Positions 2,448 through 49,325 of a DNA stretch of 64,000 nucleotides are shown piece by piece (position 1 is the first letter of the stretch; the number at the start of each line of letters is the position of its first letter). The DNA lies in the NCBI GenBank assembly GCA_041662565.1, contig JBAZSE010000001.1:193084-257083 (forward strand). Reading direction: 5' to 3'. The translations under genes were made by a program, and so were the position numbers. The notes below the pieces were generated by a model. That model was not told the origin of the DNA. It searched no databases and was given only the letters and a program-made list of their open reading frames with translations. The stretch comes from Patescibacteria group bacterium. Its GTDB lineage: Bacteria > Patescibacteriota > Patescibacteriia > UBA1558 > UBA10009.

Positions 2448-3695
2448 ATGACTCAAGCTCAAATTATTACCGGTTTGGATATTGGTTCCAGCAACATTAG
2501 GGCCGTTGTTTTGCAGCAAACCCACGAAGGCGGTTGGCAAATTATTGGTGCCAGCGAACGCTTGGCCGAAGGCGTGGCCAAAGGCATGGTTACCAATATT
2601 GAAGATCTGGTTTCATCCATTTCCGAATGTTTGGAGCAGGCCGAAAGAATGACCGGATTACCAATCGAAAGAGCGGTCGTGGGCATGAATGGCACGCATA
2701 TTAAAACTTTGGAATCAACCGGCGTAGTGGCGGTGGCTAAAGCGGATAAAGAAATAACCGAAGAAGATGTCGAACGGGCGATTGAAGCGGCTCAAGCCGT
2801 GGCCACGCCGGCCAATTACGAAATTCTCCACGTTATTCCCAAGGACTTTACCATAGATGGCCAATCGGGCGTTAAAGATCCGGTAGGCATGACCGGCATT
2901 CGGCTGGAAGTGGCAACCCAAATTATTATGGGTTTATCTTCGCAGGTTAAAAATTTAACCAAATGTATCTACCGCACAGGGGTAGATATCAATGATGTGG
3001 TTTTTGGCGTATTGGCGGCAAGTGAAAGTACTTTGGTTAAAAAACAAAAAGAATTGGGCGTGGCTTTAGTTAATTTAGGCGCCCAAACAACAAGCTTGAT
3101 TGTTTATGAAGAAGGAGATGTTTTACATACTGCCGTACTGCCCATTGGCAGTAACCATATTACTGCCGATATTGCCATCGGTTTAAGGATTTCTATGGAA
3201 ACCGCCGAGGCCTTAAAACTAGAAATTGCCCAGGCCGATAGCTCCAAGGTTAATAAAAGAGATGAAATTGATTTGGCCAGATTTTCGGTCAACGAAAAAG
3301 AAAGAACAATGGTTTACGTTAAACAGATTGCCGAAATCGTTCAGGCCAGGGTAGAAGAAATTTTCAGTTTGATTGATAAGGAATTAAAAAAAATCAACCG
3401 TTCCGGTTTATTGCCCTCGGGCGTTGTTTTAACCGGGGGCGGGGCCAAGCTTCCCGGAATTTTAGAGCTAGGCAAAGAAAAATTAAAGTTGCCGGTGTTT
3501 GCCGGTTTTCCCTTGGGTTTGGAAAATAATGCCATTGATAAAGTTAATGATCCCAGTTATGCCACGGCTTTGGGCTTGGCTATTTGGGGAACTCAAGGGG
3601 CAGCTGCCAAACACGGTCTGCATTTGCCCTCTTTTTCTTCGGTTGATCAGGTTGTAGGAAAAATGAAAGATTGGTTTAAATCATTATTGCCTTAA
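2448..3695 (+). CDS. ftsA: Cell division protein FtsA
   Basis: ITGLDIGSSNIRAVV actin-fold N-terminus; 415 aa; immediately upstream of ftsZ. Confidence 0.9.
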   Translation: MTQAQIITGLDIGSSNIRAVVLQQTHEGGWQIIGASERLAEGVAKGMVTNIEDLVSSISECLEQAERMTGLPIERAVVGMNGTHIKTLESTGVVAVAKADKEITEEDVERAIEAAQAVATPANYEILHVIPKDFTIDGQSGVKDPVGMTGIRLEVATQIIMGLSSQVKNLTKCIYRTGVDINDVVFGVLAASESTLVKKQKELGVALVNLGAQTTSLIVYEEGDVLHTAVLPIGSNHITADIAIGLRISMETAEALKLEIAQADSSKVNKRDEIDLARFSVNEKERTMVYVKQIAEIVQARVEEIFSLIDKELKKINRSGLLPSGVVLTGGGAKLPGILELGKEKLKLPVFAGFPLGLENNAIDKVNDPSYATALGLAIWGTQGAAAKHGLHLPSFSSVDQVVGKMKDWFKSLLP

Positions 3696-3731
3696 CTCAT
3701 TAAATTTACCAAATTTTAATATCACAATATC

Positions 3732-4934
3732 ATGTCTATAAATGTCAAAGTCAAACCGATGGAAGTTAAGCCGGAAATGGAAACTTTCGCCAAAATTAAA
3801 GTTTTTGGCGTAGGTGGGTCCGGCGGTTCGGCCATTAATCGAATGATAAAATCCAAAATCAGAGGTGTGGATTTTATTGCGGTTAATACCGATGCCCAGG
3901 CCTTAAACAGTAATGCGGCGCCAAAAAAAGTCCATATCGGCAAAGGCACAACACGGGGTTTGGGCGCAGGCATGGATCCGGAAACCGGGGCTCAAGCGGC
4001 CGAAGAAGATGAAGATGAAATCAGATCGGCCATTCAGGGCGCTGATATGGTTTTTATCACTTGCGGTCTTGGTGGAGGCACTGGCACCGGTGCGGCGCCG
4101 ATTATTGCGGCCGCGGCCAGAGAGCTTGGTGCTTTAACCATTGCGGTAGTTACCAGGCCTTTTAGTTTTGAAGGCGCCCAGCGCCGGAGCATTGCCGAAA
4201 GGGGTTTGGATAAGTTAATTGATAAAGTTGATACCATTATTACCATTCCCAATGACCGTTTATTGCAAGTGATTGATAAAAAAACTTCCTTATTGGATGC
4301 GTTTGCCATTGTGGATGAGGTTTTAAAACAGGGCGTGCAGGGCATTTCGGAAATTATCACCATTCCGGGTTTAGTTAATGTGGATTTTGCCGATGTTAAA
4401 GCAATTATGAAAGATGCCGGCAGCGCTTTAATGGGCATTGGTCGCTCCAGCGGTGAAAATCGGGCAGTAGAAGCGGCCAGAGCCGCTATTGAAAGTCCGC
4501 TTTTGGAACTTTCCATCAAAGGCGCTAAAGGAGTATTGTTTACCATTACCGGCGGAACGGATCTAACCATGCATGAAGTAAACGAAGCGGCCGAAGTTAT
4601 AACATCTTCCATCGATTCCAATGCCAAAGTAATTTTTGGCGCCGTGATTGATGAATCTTTGAATTCGGAAGTGAAAATTACGGTTATTGCCACCGGCTTT
4701 AGTCCAAGCAACAGGGGAGAATCCGAAGTGGAAAGAATGCAAAAAGAAGATCGGCCTTTTACCGTTGTCCAGCCCGTTAACCAGCAATTGGAAGAAAGGC
4801 AGAATTTAGCGGCCAAAAATATTTTTTCCAAAAAGGGCAAAACCATAGAGCATAAACTGGAAGTGCCGGTTAAATCCAAAGAAGAAGAAGAATTGGAAGT
4901 TCCGGCTTTTATCAGAAGAAAGATGGGTAAATAA
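3732..4934 (+). CDS. ftsZ: Cell division GTPase FtsZ
   Basis: GGGTGTGAAPIIA tubulin signature; NTDAQAL; 400 aa. Confidence 0.95.
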   Translation: MSINVKVKPMEVKPEMETFAKIKVFGVGGSGGSAINRMIKSKIRGVDFIAVNTDAQALNSNAAPKKVHIGKGTTRGLGAGMDPETGAQAAEEDEDEIRSAIQGADMVFITCGLGGGTGTGAAPIIAAAARELGALTIAVVTRPFSFEGAQRRSIAERGLDKLIDKVDTIITIPNDRLLQVIDKKTSLLDAFAIVDEVLKQGVQGISEIITIPGLVNVDFADVKAIMKDAGSALMGIGRSSGENRAVEAARAAIESPLLELSIKGAKGVLFTITGGTDLTMHEVNEAAEVITSSIDSNAKVIFGAVIDESLNSEVKITVIATGFSPSNRGESEVERMQKEDRPFTVVQPVNQQLEERQNLAAKNIFSKKGKTIEHKLEVPVKSKEEEELEVPAFIRRKMGK

Positions 4935-4942
4935 TTTAACCT

Positions 4943-5422
4943 ATGCGTTGCCCGGTTTGTTTAACTCAAGATACTAAGGTAACCGATTCCCGGTTGGCGG
5001 AAGAAGCTTTTGTTATTAAAAGGCGTCGGGAATGTTATAGATGTGGCTTTAGATTTTCCACCTATGAACAGATGGAAATCCTTAACTTAACGGTAGTTAA
5101 AAGAACGGGCAACAAAGAGCCCTACTTGCGTGAAAAATTGGAATCAGGTTTAAAAAAATCTTTGGAAAAAAGGCCCTACACCCAGGATAATTTTAAAAAA
5201 TTAGTTAGCACCATTGAGCGCGATATCCAAAAAAGAAAGCAAGATGAAATTACCACTTCGGAAATCGGCGAAATAGTCATGAAACGGCTGAAACTTTTCG
5301 ATAAAGTGGCTTACATCAGGTTTGCTTCCGTTTACCGAGCCTTTGAGGATGTAAAAACTTTTCAAAAGGAATTAAACAGCTTACTAAAATCTCCAGCGGC
5401 TTTAAAAAGCAAGAAAAGATAA
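4943..5422 (+). CDS. nrdR: Transcriptional repressor NrdR (zinc ribbon plus ATP-cone)
   Basis: MRCPVCLTQDTKVTDSR...CYRCGFRF zinc ribbon followed by an ATP-cone; 159 aa. Confidence 0.9.
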   Translation: MRCPVCLTQDTKVTDSRLAEEAFVIKRRRECYRCGFRFSTYEQMEILNLTVVKRTGNKEPYLREKLESGLKKSLEKRPYTQDNFKKLVSTIERDIQKRKQDEITTSEIGEIVMKRLKLFDKVAYIRFASVYRAFEDVKTFQKELNSLLKSPAALKSKKR

Positions 5423-9016: not shown

Positions 9017-9316
9017 ATATTTGGCCTGTTGTAATTTATTAAATCCAACGGGCGATTAATGGTTAATTGATATTTTTTTATAGTGAAAAGCTCCTCTTGT
9101 GGAGGGGCTTGAATTTTTGAGGTTTTTTATTTTTTAGACAGTAAAAAAACTCAAGCCCCTCTTGAGTTTATTATTATTTTGATTACGGAAAATTTCTTGT
9201 TTCATAAATCAATAGTATAATTTTAATCCAACTGTTTTTATCTGGCAAGCACGTGAGTTGGGGATAAATCCTTTCTAATTGCTAAAGATAGGGGTTTTTG
9301 CTACAATTTCAATATT

Positions 9317-20780: not shown

Positions 20781-20826
20781 AAATAGGCCTTGCCTTTACT
20801 GGTCAAGGCCTATTTTATTTTTTCGC
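20781..20826. terminator. Bidirectional terminator between convergent genes
   Basis: AGGCCTTG-N10-CAAGGCCT flanked by A and T runs. Confidence 0.7.
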
Positions 20827-21284
20827 GTATTCACAAAATAAACCAGCCAAGCCCAAATTAAAGCAACTAAAAAAATAGTTGAACCGATAAAACAAGGGGT
20901 TGTAAAAGGATTGGTGGTAATTTGGCCGGAACAACCAATTGTTGGCTGGCCGTTATTTTTTAAAAATTTAAATAGAACAAAGCTAAAGTTGCTCCAGGCA
21001 AAAATTGTGCCGGCAATTAAAAAAATGCCCAAATGTTTTAATGATTTAAGCTTAGTTAAAATTTCCTTTTTATTTAGGTTGAGCGACCAAATTAAAGCGA
21101 TTAAAAAAGCCCAAGATCCCCAAAAACAAGGGGTGGTAACGGGGTTGGGAATCTGGCAATCTTGGATTTTAAAAAACGTCCATTCTATGGCGTAAAATTT
21201 GTTAAAATCCTGGGCTACCGTGTAAAAAGCAAAAACCGTTCCACCAAATAAAATAAGATTTAAAATATAGTAAAGTTTTTTCAT
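20796..21284 (-). CDS. Four-TM membrane protein with an internal duplication (NPVTTPCFWGSWAFL / NPFTTPCFIGSTIFL)
   Basis: Two homologous halves each with NPxTTPCF before a TM helix; no family recognised. Confidence 0.4.
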   Translation of the reverse strand: MKKLYYILNLILFGGTVFAFYTVAQDFNKFYAIEWTFFKIQDCQIPNPVTTPCFWGSWAFLIALIWSLNLNKKEILTKLKSLKHLGIFLIAGTIFAWSNFSFVLFKFLKNNGQPTIGCSGQITTNPFTTPCFIGSTIFLVALIWAWLVYFVNTRKNKIGLDQ

Positions 21285-21299
21285 GAGTTTAATGTATTT

Positions 21300-21407
21300 G
21301 GCCTCTCGACCTTGCTCGAGGCCATTCGACTCATTTTTATGGTTGAAGCTACGACTTTATGTCGTAGCGAAAACCATGAGCGACTCCGCTTCGGCGGAGG
21401 AGTCGAA
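21300..21407 (-). other. Highly structured roughly 110-nt leader 5' of the membrane-protein gene (nested hairpins, UUCG loop)
   Basis: 10-bp long-range pairing cattcgactc/gagtcgaatg enclosing hairpins ctacgac/gtcgtag, atggtt/aaccat and ctccgc-ttcg-gcggag; plus ggcctc..gaggcc. Confidence 0.4.
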
Positions 21408-21440
21408 TGGTCGGGGTGACCCGATTTGAACGGGCGACCT
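21408..21440 (-). ncRNA. tRNA 3'-half-like fragment (T-arm GCCCG-TTCAAAT-CGGGT, acceptor CACCCCG, A, CCA) with no matching 5' half adjacent
   Basis: The reverse complement of 21408-21479 lacks a D-arm and anticodon arm; its acceptor strand is complementary to the CGGGGTG at 21654-21660. Confidence 0.45.
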
Positions 21441-21490
21441 TCCGCCTTCGCGTTCCGCTACGGCGGACAGGCATGCACCTAAAAATAAAT

Positions 21491-21567
21491 TGGTCGGGGT
21501 AGCGGGATTTGAACCCACGACCTCACGCACCCCATGCGTGCGCGCTAGCCAACTGCGCTATACCCCG
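21491..21567 (-). tRNA. tRNA-Pro (anticodon GGG) with encoded CCA
   Basis: Manual cloverleaf: CGGGGTA-TA-GCGC-AGTTGGCTA-GCGC-G-CACGC-ATGGGGT-GCGTG-AGGTC-GTGGG-TTCAAAT-CCCGC-TACCCCG-A-CCA. Confidence 0.8.
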
Positions 21568-21622
21568 TTGTGAATATTAAATTTAAGCACCTTTACCCGC
21601 CATAGCCGAAGGCGTCGGCGGG

Positions 21623-21660
21623 CCATGCGTGCGCGGCACAGCCAACTGCGCCACACCCCG
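21623..21660 (-). ncRNA. tRNA 5'-half-like fragment (acceptor strand CGGGGTG, D-arm, anticodon stem, ATGG) homologous to tRNA-Pro, then diverging into a GC hairpin
   Basis: CGGGGTGTGGCGCAGTTGGCTGTGCCGCGCACGCATGG followed by CCCGCC..GGCGGG; no T-arm or 3' acceptor follows. Confidence 0.45.
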
Positions 21661-21669
21661 ATTACTGGC

Positions 21670-21697
21670 ATTATAGTTGAAAATTTATATTTTACAA
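21670..21697 (-). promoter_or_regulatory. Minus-strand promoter TTGTAA-N16-TATAAT with predicted start at the 5' tRNA-like fragment
   Basis: Reverse complement of + 21670-21697; predicted TSS near 21663. Confidence 0.45.
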
Positions 21698-21757
21698 GCC
21701 CTAGCTGGCTAATGCGATTTTTTCCATTTTGATATATACTTATAATAGATTAAACTT

Positions 21758-22516
21758 ATGCCCAAAAAATATTGGATTATTATTTGCTTTGTTTTGGCCG
21801 TTGGTATTTATTTAAACCGGTCTTATGCTTATATTTATCAAAGAATAGATAAAGCCGGCTTAAATCCGCCTGTTCAAAATCAGCTTTATTCATTTGGCTA
21901 CACCAATGATGTTCCAAGTTACGAAGATTACGCGCTCTATGTGGCTTTAGGCGATAGCTTAACCGCCGGAGTTGGGGTTGATCAATATGAACAATCTTTT
22001 CCTTATCTGCTAGCAAAAAAAATAGCCGATGCCAAACAACCAAAAGTAATAACCTTAAAAACCTTGGCTGTGCCCGGAGCCAAAACCGCGGATGTTTTAA
22101 CTCTTCTTCCCACGGTTATTGCCAACAAACCACAGGCAGTAATTTTATTGATAGGCGTTAACGATATTCATGGTAACGTTTCTAAAGATGATTTTAAAAA
22201 AAATTATGAACAAATTGTAAGCGAGTTAACTAAAAAAACGTCAGCTAAAGTTTATTTAATCAATCTGCCGGCTATTGGCGCTAATAATTTATTGTTATTG
22301 CCCTATAATTATTACTTCAGGGCATTAACTAAAAATTTTAATAAAGTTATTAAAGAGTTGGCCGAGCAATACAATCTTACTTATATTGATTTGCATACGC
22401 CCACGGCCGATGTTTTAAAACATAACGGCAATTATTATTCAGTTGATTTTTTTCACCCCTCGGCTATTGGTTATCAGCATTGGGCCGAAATAATTTATGC
22501 AGATTTACATAAATAA
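21758..22516 (+). CDS. SGNH/GDSL-family hydrolase
   Basis: ALGDSLTAGVG block I Ser, GVNDI block III, DFFHPS catalytic Asp/His; signal-anchor N-terminus. Confidence 0.75.
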   Translation: MPKKYWIIICFVLAVGIYLNRSYAYIYQRIDKAGLNPPVQNQLYSFGYTNDVPSYEDYALYVALGDSLTAGVGVDQYEQSFPYLLAKKIADAKQPKVITLKTLAVPGAKTADVLTLLPTVIANKPQAVILLIGVNDIHGNVSKDDFKKNYEQIVSELTKKTSAKVYLINLPAIGANNLLLLPYNYYFRALTKNFNKVIKELAEQYNLTYIDLHTPTADVLKHNGNYYSVDFFHPSAIGYQHWAEIIYADLHK

Positions 22517-43573: not shown

Positions 43574-43688
43574 AGGGCCTTTTCAACCACGTTCCTATGC
43601 CGGTTGTCCCAGCCACGCCACCATCCGGTGACAGTTCGGAATACAGGTTTTTGTTTTTTTACGATATAATAACTTATTAACAGTGTCA

Positions 43689-49082: not shown

Positions 49083-49227
49083 TAAATATTTTTTATTTTA
49101 TAAAATTTTTCCCTTTCTGTGGGATTTTTTATTTTCTTGATCCCCCTCTAAAATCATGCTATAATTCCTAAACAATTTAAATAAATTTGGCCTAAACTCT
49201 AGCTATTGCTGGGGCATGGTATAAAAT

Positions 49228-49325
49228 CGTTGAACACATCCAACCCGTCATTCAGGGCGTGTTCAACGTTGCGTAGGGAAACTTACGTAAGGCCCGCAAG
49301 GGCCTCCTGGTGGCGGGTTTTGTGT
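49228..49325 (+). other. GC-rich structured element (10-bp IR, GNRA hairpin GGCCC-GCAA-GGGCC, terminator-like CCCGC..GCGGGTTTT) in the leader of ORF 49370
   Basis: cgttgaacac..gtgttcaacg; ggcccgcaagggcc; gcgggtttt read directly. Confidence 0.4.

Follow-up and report, generated by a model that had tools for sequence, protein, structure and literature searches.

A complete tRNA-Pro(GGG) gene lying within an interrupted tRNA-Pro(GGG) gene in a Patescibacteria group bacterium

Introduction

How does a bacterial locus come to hold a complete tRNA gene between what look like the two halves of another one? The question was raised by a first-pass annotation of 64,000 nucleotides from a Patescibacteria group bacterium (the window, that is, the whole stretch of DNA that was analysed), in which a tRNA-Pro(GGG) was placed between a tRNA 5'-half-like and a tRNA 3'-half-like piece, upstream of a structured leader. 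As possible origins it named a second tRNA gene disrupted by an insertion containing the tRNA-Pro, an integration or att scar, and a split or intron-containing tRNA. All the elements that it listed were found again in place, on the minus strand. [quoted passage not shown]

Results

The outer tRNA-Pro(GGG) is encoded in three segments

Three colinear segments of the minus strand (21660-21623, 21479-21472 and 21440-21408) make up an outer tRNA-Pro(GGG), interrupted by two inserts. The features of the locus, in the direction of reading of the minus strand, are the following:

21670-21697, minus strand: sigma-70-like promoter TTGTAA-N16-TATAAT, with 10 of 12 matches
21623-21660, minus strand: outer tRNA-Pro(GGG) segment 1, positions 1-35 (acceptor 5' strand, D arm, anticodon-stem 5' strand, A32 U33 G34 G35)
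21480-21622, minus strand: insert 1, 143 nt, exactly between outer positions 35 and 36
21577-21620, minus strand: left arm of the long helix, from the predicted helix list and duplex energy
21491-21567, minus strand: inner intact tRNA-Pro(GGG), 77 nt with encoded CCA (ARAGORN; Rfam tRNA)
21443-21488, minus strand: right arm of the long helix, containing outer segment 2 and most of insert 2
21472-21479, minus strand: outer tRNA-Pro(GGG) segment 2, positions 36-43, GGTGCATG (G36, G37, U38 and the anticodon-stem 3' strand)
21441-21471, minus strand: insert 2 (GC hairpin H2), 31 nt, exactly between outer positions 43 and 44
21408-21440, minus strand: outer tRNA-Pro(GGG) segment 3, positions 44-76 (variable loop, T arm GCCCG/CGGGT, acceptor 3' strand CACCCCG, A73, CCA)
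21322-21410, minus strand: structured leader, with an 11-bp closing helix CCAUUCGACUC/GAGUCGAAUGG around two hairpins, in a three-way junction
20796-21284, minus strand: downstream ORF for a 162-aa membrane protein with a duplicated TTPCF-GS motif

The outer segments abut without gap, overlap, loss or duplication, and once joined they are called tRNA-Pro(GGG) by ARAGORN, a call that requires the manual removal of the 143-nt and 31-nt inserts. As encoded, the outer gene has no contiguous cloverleaf and was detected neither by ARAGORN, with or without its intron mode, nor by Rfam. The two partial pieces described in the first-pass annotation are thus both there, including acceptor strands (CGGGGTG and CACCCCG) that are exactly complementary and a 3' piece composed of variable loop, T arm, acceptor strand and ACCA, and what had seemed to be absent, positions 36-43, lies at 21479-21472. 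The 5' piece matches positions 1-35 of the inner tRNA, except for a 2-nt insertion and one substitution in the D loop. Its first 21 nucleotides are identical to those of an intact tRNA-Pro(GGG) gene of Buchananbacteria (locus L021), segment 2 is identical to positions 36-43 of the same gene, and the differences between this gene and the joined outer tRNA are confined to the D loop and position 29. The motif GGTGCRTG appeared by chance in the two flanks in only 265 of 200,000 shuffles (1.3e-3), and it occurs twice in the whole 64-kb window, one of the occurrences being segment 2 itself. As concatenation of the flanks restores the tRNA, the 143 nt are an insert at 35/36. The disruption of a second tRNA gene by a tRNA-Pro insertion, one of the origins initially proposed, is in this way borne out by an outer gene whose segments are all present and in order, with the cuts falling exactly at 35/36 and 43/44.

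Segment 3 is identical to the 3' halves of intact tRNA-Pro genes of other Patescibacteria, and in 27 of the 29 genomes that have this half it sits within an intact tRNA-Pro gene. Judged from the sequences, such identity to functional genes elsewhere would reflect either a recent event, gene conversion or selection.

Insert 1 opens with a GC hairpin (H1, 21622-21596), which a spacer separates from the inner tRNA, and ends in 11 nt of AT spacer; an Rfam search of it returned no family besides tRNA. Insert 2 holds the mini-hairpin TCCGCCGTAGCGGA and shares a direct repeat with 21398-21385 (1 of 1000 shuffles); the mini-hairpin TCCGCCGWAGCGGA was found after both 3' ends, that of the inner and that of the outer tRNA. 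Between the tRNA copies, whose spacings are 93 and 83 nt, three repeats were detected (D1, D3 and D6), of 38 nt at 76%, 21 nt at 90% and 13 nt at 100% identity.

The outer copy is under relaxed constraint, as deduced from its D-loop indel, its C29.A41 mismatch, its 31-nt insertion, a competing local hairpin of -21.3 kcal/mol formed by segment 1 when folded alone, and an acceptor stem whose predicted pairing probability is only 0.03-0.09 in the 394-nt full transcript. Because the nested tRNA has the same anticodon, the outer gene is also redundant.

The inner tRNA-Pro(GGG) has the features of a functional tRNA

The tRNA-Pro(GGG) reported in the first pass was called by ARAGORN and scored 62.2 bits with the Rfam tRNA model, against a gathering score of 29. 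The identity set of bacterial ProRS comprises G35, G36, A73 and G72 (as C1-G72), and the inner tRNA has it in full, as its sequence reads C1-G72, A73, anticodon GGG (G35, G36) and G37. The pairing probability predicted for its cloverleaf is 0.81-0.97. The inner gene is thus presumed to be the functional tRNA of the pair.

The two tRNAs share the anticodon and differ at about 10 places, with three T-stem pairs flipped. The inner one is of what we call the A type, with acceptor CGGGGTA/TACCCCG and T stem GTGGG/CCCGC, and the outer one is of the G type. This difference in sequence type supports that the insert is a redundant replacement copy and not a recent local duplicate.

A one- or two-piece tmRNA was also considered for the locus. 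Features of tmRNA are a tRNA-Ala-like acceptor with G3.U70, a tag reading frame and pseudoknots; the tmRNA mode of ARAGORN and Rfam returned nothing, and the acceptor has G3-C70 instead of G3.U70, so this candidate was rejected.

The flanks of the inner tRNA are predicted to pair in a long helix

The flanks of the inner tRNA are predicted to form an interrupted helix of around 35 bp, in blocks of 4+3+3+11+4+7+3 bp, with the inner tRNA at its tip. The duplex energy was -52.6 kcal/mol, compared with -28.0 +/- 4.3 in shuffled sequences, none of which (0 of 2000) was as good, and the predicted pairing probability of the helix core was 0.75-1.0 in all contexts. Between the 25-nt core of the right arm and the reverse-complemented left arm the identity is 80%, which 0 of 1000 shuffles equalled. 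The two GC hairpins of the first-pass annotation do exist, but they pair better with each other than with themselves. Both flanks together contribute the at least 20 or so bp of mostly continuous duplex that characterise RNase III-type stems, and on this structural model the flanking stem may act as a processing stem. Pairing between flanks was also seen at other Patescibacteria tRNAs, namely a tRNA-Phe (z = -8.5) and a tRNA-Ile (z = -4.3) of L021, and the flanks of the tRNA-Pro(GGG) of locus L041 form a 14-bp perfect inverted repeat (z = -5.0).

The helix arms resemble neither tRNA nor anything else in the window. Neither the arms nor the GC hairpins have a further copy in the 64 kb, and the arms have none in the comparison loci either. 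Several identities for these sequences were discarded on such grounds. The GC hairpins are not a dispersed repeat family, as there are no other copies in the window, and neither the arms nor the leader are inverted or decayed tRNA fragments, since no significant similarity was found. The 25-nt arms would provide the terminal inverted repeats of a MITE-like element, but this candidate was rejected too for want of a target-site duplication at the outer junctions and of further copies in the window or the comparison loci, AGGTGC being repeated only internally.

A single promoter probably serves the whole unit

The promoter TTGTAA-N16-TATAAT is present as first described, but the transcription start that had been assigned to the first nucleotide of the 5' piece was displaced: the -10 box ends 10 nt from the outer C1, so the start lies probably 1-5 nt upstream of that piece. 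In the region, three promoter-like sites were found against a chance expectation of 3.0, so that the scan by itself counts for little as evidence. The inner tRNA has no comparable promoter immediately upstream, only a TAATAT -10-like box at 21579-21574 without a -35 box. The full promoter belongs then to the outer gene only, and it probably serves the whole unit.

The leader noted in the first pass proved to be real, its fold having a z of -6.99. Its closing helix, a 100% inverted repeat (I3), includes the outer CCA. It has no Rfam match and is absent upstream of the homologous genes in relatives. The 162-aa membrane protein encoded downstream has at least 154 homologues in Patescibacteria and no Pfam or PHROG match; as no terminator is predicted between the tRNA unit and this ORF, both are probably co-transcribed.

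Related arrangements are found at other loci

Homologues of both neighbouring genes were located in relatives, the closest of which show around 60% amino-acid identity, and none of them has a tRNA or the leader at the matching position. For the GDSL lipase the nearest relatives are at most 64% identical, with an RRM protein or the contig end upstream and no tRNA, and the homologues of the 162-aa membrane protein lie 18-60 nt after protein genes, with no leader or tRNA. The idea that relatives would keep an intact tandem tRNA array that has simply decayed here was not sustained by these comparisons.

A metagenome scan did not recover this species, which is present in runs SRR18595301 and SRR6484324, and the loci that it provided are analogues, not orthologues. 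In three loci (L040, L041 and L042), intact tRNA-Pro genes are flanked by tRNA-Pro fragments. L041 contains the two sequence types of the present locus with inner and outer exchanged, and the outer fragments of L040 and L041 are heavily degraded. Partial direct and inverted tRNA copies appear in L032 and L006, with a partial tandem duplication of tRNA-Val demonstrable in L032. When viral contigs were scanned for nested tRNA-Pro, double matches to ACCCCGACCA were mostly coding repeats, and the only relevant cases were L050 and L065/68/70, with an intact tRNA-Pro and a nearby fragment. Another viral contig, L049, carries a tyrosine integrase (PF00589 Phage_integrase, E = 2e-21) 40 nt upstream of a 32-nt tRNA fragment identical to positions 43-74 of the inner tRNA. 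At permissive thresholds, Rfam detected only intact tRNAs in the region, the whole window and L040-L042, apart from chance-level hits such as twister-sister (15 bits, E = 3.4).

Discussion

We consider it reasonably probable that an ancestral tRNA-Pro(GGG), the outer one, was interrupted at the DNA level and replaced by the inner gene, its segments being left as a fossil. The outer gene, the older of the two, is most probably dead, a remnant of a DNA insertion. The insertion would have been guided by homology to the anticodon loop, and the best candidate for the inserter would be an integrase-type mobile element with its own copy of tRNA-Pro(GGG), the body of which could have been deleted later. 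The inner gene would now be the working tRNA, and the three outer segments the fossil. Transcription would run from the old promoter (21697-21670) through the 5' fossil, the inner tRNA, the 3' fossil and the leader, and probably into the gene of the 162-aa membrane protein. In the transcript, the inverted repeat is predicted to give the interrupted helix of some 35 bp that carries the inner cloverleaf at its end, and the mature tRNA-Pro(GGG) would be freed by RNase P and 3' trimming, possibly after cleavage of the stem by RNase III, leaving the outer halves as by-products.

Speaking for this explanation are an outer gene that is colinear, complete and cleanly cut, the damage in the copy, the lack of conservation in relatives and the similar debris elsewhere. 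Speaking against it, two clean insertions whose removal restores a perfect cloverleaf are an intron signature too, and the inverted-repeat arms are unlike tRNA or other sequence of the window.

Phages and islands with tyrosine integrases cross over in the anticodon loop or the T loop and leave duplicated tRNA fragments. The att scar of the first-pass annotation is a plausible origin on account of the breakpoints, of the integrase and fragment of L049 and of the similar clusters elsewhere, but there is no integrase in the window. As in such scars, partial tRNA copies adjoin an intact gene of the same identity, with direct repeats of tRNA segments (D1, D3, D6) beside it, and one breakpoint lies in the anticodon loop (35/36), the other where the variable loop begins (43/44). 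The likeness may extend to L049, with an integrase and an inner-type fragment, and it is also seen in the viral contigs with a fragment and an intact gene. By contrast, all that canonical integration displaces is a 3' fragment, left downstream of a gene that is reconstituted as a hybrid, whereas here a gene of foreign type lies between two fossils, in such a way that integration by itself does not account for the 5' fragment and the complete replacement gene. Moreover, only 55 and 11 nt of flank remain between the copies, the flanks form a 35-bp inverted repeat, and no integrase or element body is found nearby. There are no mobile-element genes in the window, nothing in it is similar to tyrosine recombinases, and the neighbouring small ORFs have no PHROG matches.

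The first-pass annotation had also raised a genuine split or intron-containing tRNA, in which the inserts would be removed, or the halves joined, to yield a second mature tRNA-Pro(GGG). Removal of both inserts does restore a cloverleaf recognised by ARAGORN as tRNA-Pro(GGG), and the pairing between the flanks recalls that between leader sequences in archaeal split tRNAs, but we hold this to be very unlikely. Group I introns need a U before the 5' splice site, which makes a U.G pair in P1, and here the would-be site is preceded by G35; Rfam gave no group I or II intron match at E <= 10 (over 21150-21800 for Intron_gpI), and the intron mode of ARAGORN found nothing. A group I intron was in fact discarded as a candidate, as there is no catalytic core and 77 of the 143 nt of the insert are tRNA. 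The predicted MFE junction, with 4 bp, a 3-nt bulge on the 3' strand, 4 bp and a 2x2 internal loop, is not a BHB (3-4-3), and cleavage there would not restore the anticodon arm, while RNase P, by cutting out the inner tRNA, would leave tails of 55 and 11 nt instead of a ligatable anticodon loop. The product would in addition duplicate the anticodon of the nested tRNA and carry a C.A mismatch in the anticodon stem and an indel in the D arm. The group I introns of Patescibacteria (PMC13011429) share with this locus the phylum, the unusual insertion position 35/36 and the precise interruption of the anticodon, and differ from it in having a group I core, in an insert that here is tRNA for 77 of its 143 nt, and in the G before the junction. 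Among archaeal split or multi-intron tRNAs, those cited, the halves of Nanoarchaeum equitans and the tri-split tRNA of Caldivirga (PMC2650326, as cited in PMC10714607), resemble it in their separated segments, in complementary extensions that would keep the halves together and in breakpoints in or near the anticodon loop, whereas the present case is that of a bacterium, with no BHB, one transcript of colinear pieces, a complete tRNA with the same anticodon in the interruption and a defective outer copy. A decayed tandem array, in which the first of three tRNA-Pro genes had lost its 3' half and the third its 5' half independently, would agree with spacings of 93 and 83 nt, near those of one tRNA plus a short spacer, with the partial tandem duplication of tRNA-Val in L032 and with the mini-hairpin after both 3' ends. 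Independent decay, nevertheless, would not yield segments that complement each other exactly (1-35, 36-43, 44-76), the stretches replaced have no residual tRNA similarity, no similarity stands out between the upstream flanks of two copies (a and b), 219 of 1000 shuffles having scored at least as high, and outer and inner tRNAs are of different sequence types, which makes this origin quite improbable in our opinion. Finally, that the assembly joined two alleles of one tRNA gene can hardly be believed. The source is a MEGAHIT metagenome contig, and breaks at 21436 and 21529 occur in Logan contigs of other runs, but the copies share no exact repeat of more than 13 nt, much shorter than any assembly k-mer, and the break at 21436 fits a 31-mer common to another tRNA-Pro gene with the same 3' half. 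Independent contigs from other sequencing runs (L002 and L004) are 100% identical across both outer junctions, confirming the passages from the 5' piece through H1 to the inner tRNA and from the leader to the 3' piece.

A different sort of alternative gives the remains a present function. The outer halves and the long stem might be kept by selection as the scaffold of a composite RNA, which on the modelled structures could clamp the precursor or direct the processing of the inner tRNA by RNase P, by RNase III or at its 3' end. By analogy with the tRNA-like 't-elements' of organelles, it could also mark the 5' end of the downstream mRNA, and after excision of the inner tRNA the outer pieces could persist as a two-piece tRNA-like RNA. 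We deem this rather unlikely. The pairing of the helix core in all contexts is in its favour, and so are the perfect preservation of the outer 3' segment, the participation of the outer CCA in the leader helix, the recurrence of flank stems at other Patescibacteria tRNAs and the similar architecture of L041, built from different sequences; when the inner tRNA was excised in silico, the two remaining pieces cofolded at -88.2 kcal/mol and kept the acceptor, the T arm and the helix. Yet the arrangement is not conserved at the matching positions of relatives, the outer fragments of L040 and L041 have degraded heavily, and the full transcript has an unstable outer acceptor stem. Improbable as well, taken as a pair, are a functional bacterial tRNA-in-tRNA precursor, whose halves would be held by the 35-bp stem after RNase P and 3' processing and be rejoined or trimmed to a second tRNA-Pro or a two-piece RNA, and a small mobile element, a tRNA-Pro(GGG) cassette, that would home into the anticodon of a resident tRNA-Pro(GGG) and replace it; such homing would explain the opposite nesting order of L041. 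If real, the precursor would give Bacteria their first split or non-group-I-interrupted tRNA, and with either novelty the range of split or interrupted tRNAs, or of a tRNA-borne homing element, would come to include this domain.

Two known arrangements offer partial parallels to this locus. As in the processing stems of rRNA, cut by RNase III, a long interrupted duplex is formed from both sides of a stable RNA in one transcript; the differences are that a single tRNA is enclosed, that the stem is set in a broken tRNA and that cleavage is here putative. The intron of archaeal tRNA-Trp houses a box C/D sRNA, likewise a functional RNA inside a tRNA interruption that is released from the same precursor. 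That host tRNA undergoes splicing and functions, with a guide RNA as its guest; in the present locus a tRNA takes the place of the guest, in a host that is probably dead.

If insertion and replacement is the true account, the locus would be a clean case of a tRNA gene destroyed and replaced in one step, and tRNA loci of Patescibacteria, the lineage to which the comparison loci mostly belong, would be places that collect partial, inverted and nested tRNA copies. Such fragments could be mistaken for split or missing tRNAs in annotation, and tRNA counts are used in scoring genome completeness (PMC13011429). The stems that flank several of these tRNAs hint, on predicted structures, at a stem-dependent maturation of tRNA in organisms with a reduced set of RNases.

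Structure of the tRNA-Pro locus

The only tRNA called by ARAGORN across the 64 kb window is a canonical tRNA-Pro(GGG) on the minus strand (21567-21491) with an encoded CCA, and its coordinates in the first-pass annotation were borne out by both ARAGORN and Rfam (62.2 bits). The 5' piece at 21660-21623 (minus strand), which had been noticed as resembling a tRNA-Pro 5' half, indeed repeats positions 1-35 of this inner tRNA, with two substitutions in the acceptor/position-9 region and, in the D loop, a 2-nt insertion plus one substitution. The 3' piece at 21440-21408 (minus strand) carries, as had been described, the variable loop, a perfect T arm, the acceptor 3' strand CACCCCG and ACCA. Neither piece had been considered a complete tRNA, which is true of each one alone, but the outer tRNA is complete once a third segment is added: positions 36-43, seemingly missing (GGTGCATG), were found at 21479-21472, 11 nt past the inner CCA, and the joined segments 21660-21623, 21479-21472 and 21440-21408 are recognized by ARAGORN as a tRNA-Pro(GGG). 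Two inserts thus interrupt the outer gene, one of 143 nt placed exactly at 35/36 and one of 31 nt placed exactly at 43/44, in such a way that no nucleotide was lost or duplicated. Matches to GGTGCRTG were present in 265 of 200,000 shuffled flanks, and there are two occurrences in the whole window.

A scan of the genome collection with the outer 3' half gave 29 loci, 27 of them with the match inside an intact tRNA-Pro gene. The tRNA-Pro(GGG) of a Buchananbacteria genome (L021) matches the outer pieces near-exactly; its sole differences from the joined outer tRNA are in the D loop and at position 29, where the outer C leaves the anticodon stem with a C.A mismatch. Both outer junctions were matched at 100% by two independent Logan contigs from other runs. 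An assembly artefact is very unlikely, as no exact repeat shared by the copies is longer than 13 nt. In two other runs, the Logan contigs (k = 31) of this species stop precisely at 21436 and 21529, which suggests that 31-mers from the 3' half of the outer tRNA and from the 5' half of the inner one recur elsewhere in those two samples; a tRNA-Pro(CGG) gene sharing the same 3' half would be an example.

The promoter TTGTAA-N16-TATAAT proposed for the 5' piece is present at 21697-21670 (minus strand), and a full promoter was found on the outer gene only. With the end of its -10 box 10 nt before C1, the probable transcription start lies a few nucleotides upstream of the 5' piece, and not exactly at its first nucleotide as had been proposed.

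Predicted folding

The segment after the 5' piece (21622-21568) pairs with that before the 3' piece (21490-21441) through helices of 4+3+3+11+4+7+3 bp, and in the predicted fold the inner tRNA is the tip of this long flank helix. The energy of the duplex is -52.6 kcal/mol versus -28.0 +/- 4.3 for shuffles, none of 2000 being as low. The two local GC hairpins noticed earlier next to both pieces are present, but they sum to only -35.4 kcal/mol, so their mutual pairing is stronger. In the DNA, the helix arms form an inverted repeat (25-nt core 80%, 0/1000 shuffles), and no direct repeat was found between them. The helix core and the inner cloverleaf are stable in every context (pairing probabilities of 0.75-1.0 and 0.81-0.97); pairing of the outer acceptor stem, 0.31-0.99 in minimal context, drops to 0.03-0.09 once the 394-nt transcript is folded, the mutated 5' piece there closing on itself in a hairpin (-21.3 kcal/mol). 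The mini-hairpin TCCGCCGWAGCGGA recurs after both tRNA 3' ends, and also beside the tRNA fragment of comparison locus L040.

Leader and downstream gene

Folding confirmed the structured leader (21410-21322, minus strand; z = -7), in which an 11-bp perfect closing helix including the outer CCA encloses two hairpins. It matches no Rfam family and is lineage-specific. No terminator was predicted between the tRNA unit and the following ORF:

20796-21284, minus strand: ORF for a membrane protein of 162 aa in which the motif TTPCF(W/I)GS is internally duplicated

This protein, which ENA did not annotate on the source contig, is real and widespread, with more than 150 homologues in Patescibacteria, and belongs to no Pfam or PHROG family. 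Two alternative pairings are seen at 21322-21410 and 21283-21334 (minus strand): GAGUCGAAUGG pairs perfectly with the segment holding the outer CCA, and AUGAGUCGAAUG, which overlaps it, could pair with the start-codon region CAUUAAACUCAU (83%). These pairings may be mutually exclusive, and may couple maturation of the tRNA 3' end to translation of the gene that follows.

The window, with a G+C content of about 40%, comes from an 809-kb metagenome contig and contains two further RNAs:

49189-49305, plus strand: LOOT RNA, full-length match, 79.4 bits (gathering score 46.4)
43581-43649, minus strand: DUF3800-IX RNA, full-length match, 54.2 bits (gathering score 36.8)

At 9099-9164, either strand of a palindromic hairpin matched mir-3047 weakly (27-29 bits, E = 0.1-0.3), which probably reflects no more than the strong inverted repeat.

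Related arrangements in other genomes

The nearest relative is a Komeilibacteria genome (64% identity), and the protein collection contained nothing between 100% and about 64% identity. The nested arrangement is not conserved: in relatives, homologues of the two genes that border the locus, the lipase and the membrane protein, have neither an adjacent tRNA nor the leader, and the intact second tRNA that the first-pass annotation envisaged at this locus was found beside neither.

Metagenomes were scanned for a tRNA-Pro 5' start and an outer-type 3' end 192-252 nt apart, and three contigs were found, each with an intact tRNA-Pro amid tRNA-Pro fragments. The most revealing case is locus L041 (Ga0214473_10226246, 1300-1870), where at least four partial tRNA-Pro copies surround one intact tRNA-Pro(GGG), which is of the window's outer type (24/24 nt identical, including 3 upstream nt) and enclosed by a perfect 14-bp inverted repeat. 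Inner-type fragments lie on either side (20-nt 5' and 19-nt 3', 95% identical), with additional decayed fragments in between, and the whole 477-nt cluster folds with z = -6.8. Judged from sequence, these are the same two types as in the window, with the nesting order reversed.

Partial direct and inverted tRNA copies were also detected at two unselected loci. In a Saccharibacteria contig (L032, CAYNWV010000001.1, 6709-6901), about 91 nt comprising the upstream flank and tRNA nt 2-25 precede the tRNA-Val(GAC) as a partial tandem duplicate, followed by an inverted D-arm copy. After the tRNA-Pro(UGG) of L006 (JGI Ga0376277_0013638, 5030-5321) comes a block that is GC-rich, highly structured and about 190 nt long, bounded by a direct repeat of about 21 nt of the tRNA 3' end and with an inverted T-arm copy inside, which looks like a miniature integration scar; L007, from the window's own ENA sample, shows the same arrangement. 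In the tRNA array of L021 (MHIM01000019.1, 6427-6652), tRNA-Phe and tRNA-Ile each lie within long AT-rich inverted repeats (TTAACAATTTTGTTAATAGTTAATTGT...), with flank duplex z of -8.5 and -4.3, respectively.

Among viral contigs, L050 (2029-2112, minus strand) has an intact tRNA-Pro(UGG) with a diverged 5' fragment (nt 1-44) 25 nt upstream, and in L065, L068 and L070 a 3' fragment (T arm and acceptor) lies 57 nt downstream of such a gene. In L049 (IMGVR_UViG_3300029145_000010, 3224-4260), the gene for a tyrosine integrase (PF00589, E = 2e-21) ends 40 nt ahead of a fragment of 32 nt that equals positions 43-74 of the inner tRNA and probably serves a temperate virus as attachment site.

Origin of the locus

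Two of the readings raised earlier are unlikely. A tandem array of three tRNA-Pro genes decayed to pseudogene fragments is disfavoured, as the outer segments abut exactly, the replaced stretches have no tRNA similarity and the flanks upstream of the copies are not related. A genuine split or intron-containing tRNA keeps a small probability, because precise removal of the two inserts would give back a cloverleaf, but we consider it very improbable: Rfam detected no group I core at the locus, the predicted helix has no bulge-helix-bulge motif, ARAGORN in intron mode gave no result, and excision of the guest by RNase P would leave long tails and no ligatable loop. Furthermore, the nucleotide before the junction is G, not U, and Patescibacteria group I introns at 35/36 come after U35 (PMC13011429).

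The best explanation is another of those first suggested, a second tRNA gene disrupted by a tRNA-Pro-bearing insertion, with the outer gene exactly interrupted. Target and cargo are identical in kind, which points to a homology-guided event and not to random transposition. The breakpoints (anticodon loop and start of the variable loop), together with the L049 fragment, point to integrase-type recombination, where an element with its own tRNA-Pro copy would likely have inserted and later been deleted down to its ends. The integration or att scar also proposed at first is plausible to this extent, but no integrase was found within the window, and canonical integration yields a different topology from this nested tRNA unit.

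Four observations favour reading the outer gene as a fossil and the inner tRNA as the gene in use. Host and guest share the anticodon, which makes the host redundant; they belong to different sequence types, so the guest is no fresh local duplicate; the outer copy has several defects, and the outer fragments in L040 and L041 are badly decayed; and a full promoter is present on the outer gene alone. A single transcript would begin at the promoter, its inverted repeat folding as a stem that displays the inner cloverleaf, and tRNA-Pro(GGG) would be freed by RNase P and 3' trimming, perhaps following RNase III cleavage; the transcript probably extends into the membrane-protein mRNA.

The nested tRNA structure is real and unusual, and no description of it was found in the literature. 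The favoured explanation is a fossil tRNA gene, interrupted and housing its own replacement, and thus a variation on the att scars and rearrangements already known for tRNA genes rather than a new RNA-processing system.
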